Shown here: positions 4,482 to 9,266 of the stretch, one piece after another
Layout of the letters: each line of letters starts with the position of its first letter
How positions within the stretch are numbered: position 1 is the first letter of the stretch
Origin: Eimeria praecox
Lineage: Eukaryota
Assembly (NCBI GenBank): GCA_963920595.1
Contig: OY986949.1
Span: 2,790,001-2,854,000 of the forward strand
Direction: 5' to 3'
Length of the DNA stretch: 64,000 bases
Notes under the pieces: generated by a model
What the model saw: the letters and a program-made list of their open reading frames with translations, nothing else
Told to the model about the DNA's origin: nothing
The model's database searches: none
Program-made: the position numbers and the translations under genes

Positions 4482-7400
4482 GAAAATTTTAAGGAAAACT
4501 GGGTTTTGGAGGGGCAAGCTGCTTCCCCAGAAAATTATTTGTTAGGTATTCACTGAGGGAGCCCATACTCCTGCGGCACGCCCTTCTTTGTGAGAGCCAA
4601 CCGCTTTCGCGCGTCTTAGAAAGTGCACATTATACGACCATGTAAGGTGTCCATATACTATATCATCAACATATCAAATCATGCAGATTTTGGAGCATTT
4701 CCACGAGATCGCCCGCCACTCCGAGGTCTTCTGTCTCCTCTATCGGCTACATGAAACCCCCAGATTTTTTGGCTAAGGCGAATACAGTCGGCACTAATTT
4801 CACGTTGCACAATCCATGCTGAACGTTCTGAGATTCCAAGTCTCTGCGTGAGTACCGTTCTGTTTTCTCGTGCGATGCAGCCAAGGGATCCATATACTAG
4901 TGCCTGTACTGTTACCCGATATCCTCGCGCTTCGTAATGCTTTTTGAGGCTTTGATATTTCTCTTCTTTTTGTAGACGGGCTGCTCCGAGAGAATTCTTC
5001 TTGTAATCCTCAAAGACGACCGCCACATCTACTATTGCCAAGTCTTTGCGCTTGTCATCTCGAAGAATAATATCAGGCCTTAACAGGGTTTCCATGTCCT
5101 CAGGGCAGGCGTCGATTTGGAGCTTCTTGCCCCTATTCTTCGCGCTGCTCTTGATAGCTGTTGCAATTCTCTCCAACGCCTTGTTATGTCGGTCTTTAAT
5201 CTTGCTATCCATATGATGAGGGCAGTGGTTGAGGACATGCGCTAGGGTTTCCGGGTCCTCTGTACAGTGGCGACATCGCGATACCTTTGAGACCTTAATC
5301 TTCTTCAGGTATGCTCGTGTGGGGAGTTGTGCAGATCGTGCTCTTAAGGCGAAGATCACCTCGTCCGGCTTCAGACGAGTGGGACCTCTCAAGAAAGCAT
5401 TACTATCTGCTGTCTGATAGGCCACTGACTTCCCTTGATCTACCTTTTCCTTCCACACGTCCCGTTGGCACTCCGCCATATGCTGTTTGATACTTTTAAT
5501 GATATGCTTCTGATCCAGTTCGGAGCCATCTGTTCGCTGAACAACATAGCTCTCGTTGCTTCCAGTCTCGATGCGCGTCTTGCTCATCGATAAGCTTCCT
5601 GGAAGCTCTGTCCATAAGCTTCGAACGTCCACCCTTTTGCCTCTCCTCTTCAGGCAGCCCAAGTCGCGCCCGTTGAGATAGGCAAGAATCGCTTCCCGGT
5701 CGCTCTTGTCACTCTCACGTGTATAGATGAAAGCCTTTTTGATGACTTCCAATAGCTGGCCTTCTGCAACCGCTCGAATCACGCTGTCTGAACTGTTGAG
5801 CATTTGTACAGCATGACCTATCTGCGTTGCAGTTGCGATCGTGATGAGAGAAGTACACCCAAGACCACCATGTGAGGTGGGCTGATGAAACATCTCAACG
5901 ACGGTGCTCTTTGAAAGCTTGAAGGTAGCCTTTAGAGCAGAGCGTATATGACGATCGAAGGCAATCAGCTGCTGTCTATAAGGGTAACAATGCCTGAGAT
6001 GATAGTCAAGACGAGACATCACAAAAGTGCGAATCGCATCTAGTTTCTGCCAGGGAAGGAGTGCTGACCTCAGGAGCTTGGTAATGTCCTTCTTCGCCTT
6101 GCTCATGACTCGAAGGATTTGATTTTGATGCACTGACGATTCCAGCGCATCCTTGACGCCCAGGTACTTGTACGCCTCCCCTAGCTTTACCACCGGCAAG
6201 ACCTCGTTGTGGAGCTTCAGCTGCACCGGATCGGGTTGTTGTCGCTTTTCTCCTCGCTTCCATCCCAAAGTAGCACATTTGGACGGGTTGGCCTCTAATC
6301 CTGTCCACTGGAGGAAGTCCACCACCACTTGATGAAGTGTAGAAATTCCTGCTCGAGTACTAGCAACCGTCTTGAGGTCGTCTGCATACGCCATGTGAGA
6401 GACCTTCACAGGCGGTCTCCCGTCTGTCGTACGCAGTTCGAGGCCTGCATCACAAGCTGCTAACCTCTGCAGGAGAGGCTCAATGGCTAGGTTGAAGAGG
6501 ATCGGGCTGAGAGGACACCCTTGCTTCACTCCTCGTCGGTTCTCAATTCGACCTGTGCAGCCCTCCTTTGTCACTACGCAGAAGCTCGCTCCTTGATAGA
6601 GATCCATGATGATCTCACGAACGTGCTTCGGTAGCCGTTGAGCCTTCAAGACAACGTGTATGAGCTCGTGGGGAACGGATCCAAATGCATTTTTCAAGTC
6701 GTAGTACGTCATGTACAGCGGTTTCGAGCCTCTGCGCGTGGAGTTGAGGATGCTTTGGGCAAGAAACAGGTGCTCATGGCACCCATTCACTGGCATGAAT
6801 CCCTTCTGCGACTTGGAGGCAACCCCGGACTGTGATGCCCAGTCCGTAATCCTGCTGGCCCACAGTGCTGCATAAAGTTTGTAGATACAGTCCTGTAGAT
6901 TGATGGGTCGCCAACTCTTCACATCGTTAGGATCGCCCTGCTTGGGAATCAAAACGGTCACGCTTTCCTTCCACTTCTCTGGAATACGTCGATGCCGAGA
7001 GCACTCGTTGTATATCGCGGTCATGGCTGGAACAAGCACCTCTTCAAACCTCTTGTACACAAAAAACCCTATCCCATCTGGCCCTGCTGCAGACTTAAGG
7101 TTGCTCTTTAGCAGCTGAGCACGCACATCCTCTTCTGTGAAGTATAGATCAATCGCACACGCTCCACTAGGGGCTGAAGCCAAAGGGTCTAAGAACTCAT
7201 GAGCAACATCAGAAGTGGAGTCGATTATTTGCTCAGAGTGCTGATCTCTAAAGTGTGCCTCCAGCTCACTGAGTTGGATGGGACAATCTTGGCTTCTAGG
7301 TTGATCTTCGTCAGCTAGTAGTTGCTCCACACACTTCTTTCTGTCTTTCATGTAGAGTGCTTGGAGATTTTGTGCTGACTCTTCTTTGAGGATCATGATG

Positions 7401-9266: not shown

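Follow-up and report, generated by a model that had tools for sequence, protein, structure and literature searches.

The 64,000-nucleotide stretch of Eimeria praecox DNA analysed here (the window) carries an intact non-LTR retrotransposon of the Utopia lineage (NeSL clade), inserted antisense to the rRNA at one base of helix 69 of the 28S gene; it is likely to have spread by target-primed reverse transcription, and its lineage appears to have switched from U2 snRNA genes to 28S, a reading to which we assign a probability of roughly 0.8. Whether the switch of target from U2 to 28S is both real and unreported is, taken by itself, an even bet. A bolder account is rather unlikely as a whole, namely that Eimeria Utopia is a live, genus-wide, rDNA-specific element, which could be the first of its kind outside animals, that it abandoned U2 and arrived by convergence at the R2/R5 hotspot from the opposite strand, and that the host rDNA was reshaped around it, with compensatory changes in helix 69 where it cuts and some 20 decoys resembling the target in every spacer.

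The window opens with a tandem array of three rDNA units, after which the sequence is no longer rDNA. Rfam LSU models straddle an insert in unit 1 (2116-10370) and in unit 2 (24490-31618), and the 28S gene of unit 3 (45912-49383) is uninterrupted, giving an occupancy in the window of two of three 28S units, one by a full-length and one by a truncated element. Without inserts, the rDNA unit measures approximately 17.6-17.8 kb; a perfect long TA microsatellite (21018-21132 and 42446-42554) precedes each 18S by about 600-700 bp. The insert of unit 1 has the following features:

4482 to 9266, minus strand: copy 1, an apparently full-length Utopia-lineage non-LTR retrotransposon, antisense in the 28S gene of unit 1
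9065 to 9266, minus strand: 5' UTR, 202 nt
4679 to 9064, minus strand: single ORF, 1,461 amino acids counted from the first Met
8174 to 8251 (aa 273-298), minus strand: N-terminal zinc finger, C-x2-C-x12-H
6377 to 6388 (aa 894-897), minus strand: YADD, the catalytic motif of the reverse transcriptase (RT)
4955 to 5275, minus strand: CCHC knuckle and the RLE motifs RH, PD, D and K..KY, by motif reading
4482 to 4678, minus strand: 3' UTR, 197 nt

Copy 1 is an RLE non-LTR retrotransposon: it has one ORF, in which a non-LTR RT is followed by a CCHC knuckle and a PD-(D/E)xK-like endonuclease, and the non-LTR hallmarks recur across the copies (a fixed 3' junction, variable 5' truncation and absence of LTRs). 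It is 4,785 bp long, with neither poly(A) nor a target duplication, and with a target deletion of 2 bp. Read from stop to stop (4679-9067, minus strand, first Met at 9064), the frame is unbroken for 1,462 amino acids and retains all of the RT, CCHC and RLE motifs, as the initial annotation had described. The encoded protein consists, in order, of a disordered N-terminus, one zinc finger (last ligand probably Cys, conserved throughout the alignment), a helical region, the RT, the CCHC knuckle (approximately aa 1265-1282) and the RLE (RH, PD, second D and K..KY at aa 1293-1371). Pfam profiles recognize RVT_1 (E 4.7e-32) and zf-RVT in the ORF; they give no match to RNase H or to the Ulp1 protease, and none to Myb, of which divergent forms could escape a profile. 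The same RLE motifs were mutated in R2Bm, where mutation showed that they matter (PMC4838377), and the fold predicted by AlphaFold for residues 268-1462 (mean pLDDT 88) is best matched by R2 structures. The 5' UTR folds strongly (z -5.3), and a ribozyme search of it against Rfam, which divergent forms could escape, returned 10 weak matches, all below gathering scores; the 3' UTR folds no better than shuffles. The 5' UTR also shares 9 nt with the 28S flank, a match set aside as too short for interpretation.

The second insert and the empty site permit the target to be defined:

26856 to 30514, minus strand: copy 2, 5'-truncated, with the 3' junction and the 2-bp deletion of copy 1 and an open frame
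48257 to 48290, plus strand: empty target in the 28S gene of unit 3, with the junction after 48277

Copy 2 is 99.7% identical to copy 1 (12 differences in 3,659 bp, 3 amino-acid changes), and this identity and the intact frames are what suggests present-day mobility. Both copies start after the identical 28S base (4481 and 26855), and 28S resumes at TTAAGGTAGCC (9267 and 30515). The empty unit 3 carries 2 bases more at the site; thus, insertion was accompanied by a 2-bp deletion without duplication. The 3' junction is 8 nt before the R2 cut AAGG^TAGC (cut site taken from PMC7650587). The initial annotation had placed a complete element in two 28S genes, antisense to the rRNA and 8 nt from the R2 site: orientation, junction and the use of the same base in both genes are confirmed, but copy 2 is a 5'-truncated element of 3,659 bp. 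That two inserts share a single base in a gene of 3.5 kb is not chance; the 28S insertions seen are these two, both within one window at the array edge.

Helix 69 of 28S is very conserved among eukaryotes. Its stem in unit 3 is GGACG/CGTTT, versus GGGAG/CUCUC in the Rfam consensus. Two compensatory pair changes are found beside the junction (helix at 48262-48279, the left half also before 4481 and 26855), and the base of the stem is TT in unit 3 versus TC in sequencing run X1 (see below). On the element strand the target reads ACCTTAA(A/G)A^ACG. The use of the element as an insertion tool, proposed at the outset, is speculative, given that the consensus eukaryotic site differs from that of Eimeria at two bases adjoining the junction.

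R2 integrates by a nick, target-primed reverse transcription and a second nick. By analogy, the RLE of the Eimeria element would make its first nick after GACGT on the rRNA-sense strand, and the 3'-OH released there would prime the copying of element RNA from the 3' end of that RNA. A second nick 2 nt away would take out 2 bp; early termination would leave 5'-truncated copies. The off-target copies occur in a spacer subrepeat resembling the target over approximately 12 bp at the nick, and recognition is therefore likely centred on these bases. Being antisense, the element cannot be carried on the Pol I transcript as R2 is; it would have to be transcribed either from a promoter of its own, located in the folded 5' UTR, or by read-in on the antisense strand, and its RNA likely continues for a few bases of 28S flank.

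The same pair of 28S copies could derive from one historical insertion that gene conversion or unequal crossover within the rDNA then multiplied, the element being no longer mobile. Identical junctions and 99.7% identity are equally expected from such homogenization, and only two 28S copies have been seen, but the truncation point of copy 2 is the exact target base, with microhomology absent, as for an independent insertion, and a related protein cluster (80% identity) has 24 members, of which the 15 listed are all 1,458 amino acids long. Homogenization of an immobile insertion is therefore quite unlikely, and independent insertion by target-primed reverse transcription is preferred.

Element sequences are also found in the intergenic spacer, of which the relevant features are:

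10500 to 13120, plus strand: array of 96-bp subrepeats in the intergenic spacer of unit 1, in most of which ACCTTAAGAATG, a near match to the target, is present
31740 to 34547, plus strand: 96-bp intergenic-spacer subrepeat array of unit 2, as in unit 1
49567 to 50957, plus strand: copy 3, 5'-truncated, of a second subfamily, in spacer subrepeat, 77% identical in amino acids, frame open
51225 to 52946, plus strand: copy 4, decayed, in spacer subrepeat, 95% identical in nucleotides

The near match to the target is present in 39 of the 52 subrepeat units found. It agrees with the target allele of run X1 at 11 of 12 bases (equalled by 9 of 20,000 shuffles) and with the allele of the window at 10 of 12 (equalled by 306 of 20,000 shuffles), for a 12-mer that was picked after the fact. 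The spacer arrays of units 1 and 2 offer approximately 40 such near-target sites, and the element occupies none of them; therefore, the 12-mer alone is not sufficient. The subrepeat also possesses ATGACGT, the other half of the site, in opposite orientation about 11 nt off the target near-copy; its higher-order period is 381 bp, and some units near the end of 28S are inverted.

Copies 3 and 4 start at one identical subrepeat position, just beyond unit 3. The 3' junction of copy 3 is in the register of the 28S target, and copy 4 has a 5' junction with 4-nt microhomology and ends with the element terminus plus 8 nt (52939-52946) identical to the 28S flank. Because of this tail, the sequence suggests that the donor of copy 4 sat in 28S and that its RNA ran on past the end of the element. 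The E. praecox gene EPH_0055280 matches 51113-52317, the locus of copy 4, over two parts (99.3% and 100% identical), and EPH_0061080 is a gene model that fuses a third element subfamily (86% amino-acid identity in the RT) to the spacer subrepeat in the same orientation. Several Eimeria 'hypothetical proteins' are fragments of the element. At the end of the rDNA array (49400-53250), the spacer is cut short and two decayed element copies precede CAG-rich unique sequence; about 5 kb past the array edge, spacer subrepeats and sequence from beyond 28S form an isolated patch in inverted orientation (58490-58870).

The two subrepeat copies and EPH_0061080 would agree with loose specificity, or with a main target in the spacer subrepeat or U2, 28S being one of several sites, and some Utopia families are weakly specific (PMC4640811). 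The youngest copies, however, are in 28S, the subrepeat copies are truncated and diverged, the tail of copy 4 points to a 28S donor and the spacer sites are empty, and we judge this explanation to be less probable again than homogenization.

The matches listed by the first protein search comprise six clusters at 64-98% identity and then drop to 33-39%, at which level oomycete RNase H-bearing proteins appear. A search among shorter proteins yielded fragments (51-91% amino-acid identity) from E. necatrix, E. mitis, E. maxima, E. praecox, E. brunetti and E. media; the E. necatrix protein ENH_00045350 is 77% identical to that of copy 1. Targeting of 28S may extend across the genus. Quick tree searches, made without bootstrap and without verified R2, R5 or LIN rows, group the Eimeria proteins in one clade (100), joined by two further proteins (96-98). 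In the RT-to-RLE trees, Eimeria, Lankesteria (a gregarine) and the oomycete rows, which are called Utopia from RNase H and source names, form a clade with SH-aLRT support of 98 (LG+G4, 68 rows) or 100 (mixture model, 28 rows); in the RT-only tree, made from 115 of 121 rows after six were dropped for short coverage and not including Lankesteria, the oomycete link has a support of 90. Caenorhabditis rows are in a clade separate from the Eimeria element. By these trees the element is a Utopia by descent, not by target, and the tree and PMC4640811 together would imply an ancestor that targeted U2. The tree pattern fits old descent within SAR, and the Utopia lineage may exist in gregarines. The Lankesteria protein is Utopia-like; its source is a transcriptome set of Lankesteria metandrocarpae, and contamination from the host of that gregarine could account for it. 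Of 377 pattern matches in a metagenome scan for relatives, 4 were distant loci, and these had neither rRNA nor U2 in their flanks; a viral scan gave none of 38, and comparison of three distant matches with solved R2 structures led to no clade assignment.

Planarian R5, a NeSL-related element, has its site 8 bp upstream of that of R2. The Eimeria element, at 8 nt, would then have the same offset, and planarian LIN elements are likewise antisense in 28S, which would favour an R5/LIN element akin to the planarian ones over a retargeted Utopia. Against this, the nearest named non-Eimeria matches listed are oomycete (33-37% identical), turtle or nematode proteins, with no flatworm-named protein among the 120 + 120 matches listed, the element has a single ORF, and the Repbase name for the family is Utopia; planarian kinship is very improbable. 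Of the NeSL/Utopia/R5 affinity proposed initially, the Utopia part is upheld by the trees and by the match to Utopia-1_ENe (see below), and R5 rows are not in the trees.

Independent reads and contigs were compared with 4436-9290. In runs X1 and X2, which come from two separate studies, the element is covered in 30 of 30 bins; of 13 alleles checked, 10 agree with neither window copy, and these runs are therefore probably other strains. At the 3' junction, X1, X2 and X3 all have contigs that reach roughly 30 letters into 28S. The longest of them goes 30 letters in, one below the bridging rule, and no listed row shows the 5' junction. In a contig of X1, 4481 is followed by TC and then by 9267; thus, X1 has an empty site, one base off that of unit 3. 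Contig depths were not taken as copy number, and low-depth X3 contigs may be carry-over of E. praecox; run X21 (raw Hi-C reads, another organism) and high-depth X3 pieces were set aside, having only short 90% matches. The CAG runs and AAACCCT heptamers present in the window are Eimeria hallmarks (PMC7564333), and the GC content of its ITS region (41% overall, 34% in ITS2) equals that in the E. praecox row of PMC13107808, the window ITS lengths, by Rfam boundaries, being 14-20 bp shorter; with the match to EPH_0055280, these features make E. praecox the likely host. An 827-aa Gln/Ala-rich frame (60570-63053, plus strand) is likely an Eimeria gene with homopolymer repeats, its match to DUF7518 being sub-threshold only. 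Repetitive rDNA is error-prone, but host contamination or an assembly chimera is scarcely credible, because relatives occur in six named Eimeria species, junction-side contigs come from three studies and run X2 and a gene model of E. praecox both contain the subrepeat junction of copy 4; the coccidian host named by the initial annotation stands.

Utopia is, to our knowledge, the oldest known site-specific lineage. A natural switch of target, with relatives in oomycetes that use U2, would make a change in RLE specificity directly testable. Apicomplexan transposons are described as few and mostly degenerate (PMC9141347 and PMC7564333), a picture of transposon-poor genomes that an intact, recently copied element, overlooked through its position in collapsed rDNA, corrects. 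The element could explain the split 28S genes of E. acervulina, which have an unidentified intervening sequence (PMC13107808), and is relevant to rDNA assembly and to 28S-based assays in chicken coccidia.

Among known systems, the closest is Utopia-1_ENe of E. necatrix (NeSL clade), a Repbase element listed in PMC7650587 with its RT printed in the supplement. This RT is nearly identical, by eye, to ENH_00045350, which is 77% identical to the copy 1 protein; therefore, judged by sequence, the family is already catalogued. Utopia-1_ENe is from another species and subfamily than copy 1, and no 28S site is given for it in the papers compared. A 2022 paper (PMC9141347) notes that Repbase contains three elements from Eimeria and reports 17 'LINE R2' elements called in Eimeria by MGEScan (Table S6); 'rRNA' and 'Utopia' are absent from its main text. 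A 2026 R2 review mentions neither Eimeria nor apicomplexans, and the supplements of PMC4640811 do not mention Eimeria. The initial claim that no apicomplexan R-element had been described thus fails for the family but survives for the 28S target: no published report of a 28S-targeted element in Eimeria was found by a search whose reach ended before the Repbase entries, Fell et al. 2025 and the R5 paper, and the 28S target of Eimeria Utopia is apparently unreported.

Utopia is defined by one to three N-terminal zinc fingers, and the oomycete members insert in U2 snRNA genes and have RNase H upstream of the RT (Kojima and Jurka 2015, PMC4640811). The Eimeria element has one finger (aa 273-298) and resembles them in tree neighbourhood, in a single ORF with zinc finger, RT, CCHC and RLE, and in a precise 3' junction with a target deletion, but it targets 28S and has no RNase H match. 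None of the four copies in the window (two in 28S, two in spacer subrepeat) has U2 flanks, and there is no U2 in the window, to which the count of copies is confined. Planarian LIN9, LIN24 and LIN26_SM are NeSL-clade, 28S-specific and antisense to the rRNA (S6 Fig of PMC4640811), a precedent for the antisense insertion that the initial annotation had contrasted with R2; their sites, unlike that of the Eimeria element, are elsewhere in 28S, and LIN9 and LIN24 end in T-rich tails. R5/LIN being a separate lineage, a shared 28S region would be convergence.

Nematode NeSL has a Ulp1 protease domain and a spliced-leader target, whereas the Eimeria element has neither a Ulp1 match nor a spliced-leader target. 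R2 inserts in the sense orientation, is co-transcribed by Pol I, and possesses a Myb domain and an HDV-like 5' ribozyme. R2Bm and R2Tg share with the Eimeria element the RT-RLE architecture and fold and the same stretch of 28S, but R2 cuts its site in the sense orientation and the Eimeria element lies antisense, 8 nt away; R2 scores 225 bits over the whole protein, versus 500-560 bits over part of it for the oomycete proteins.
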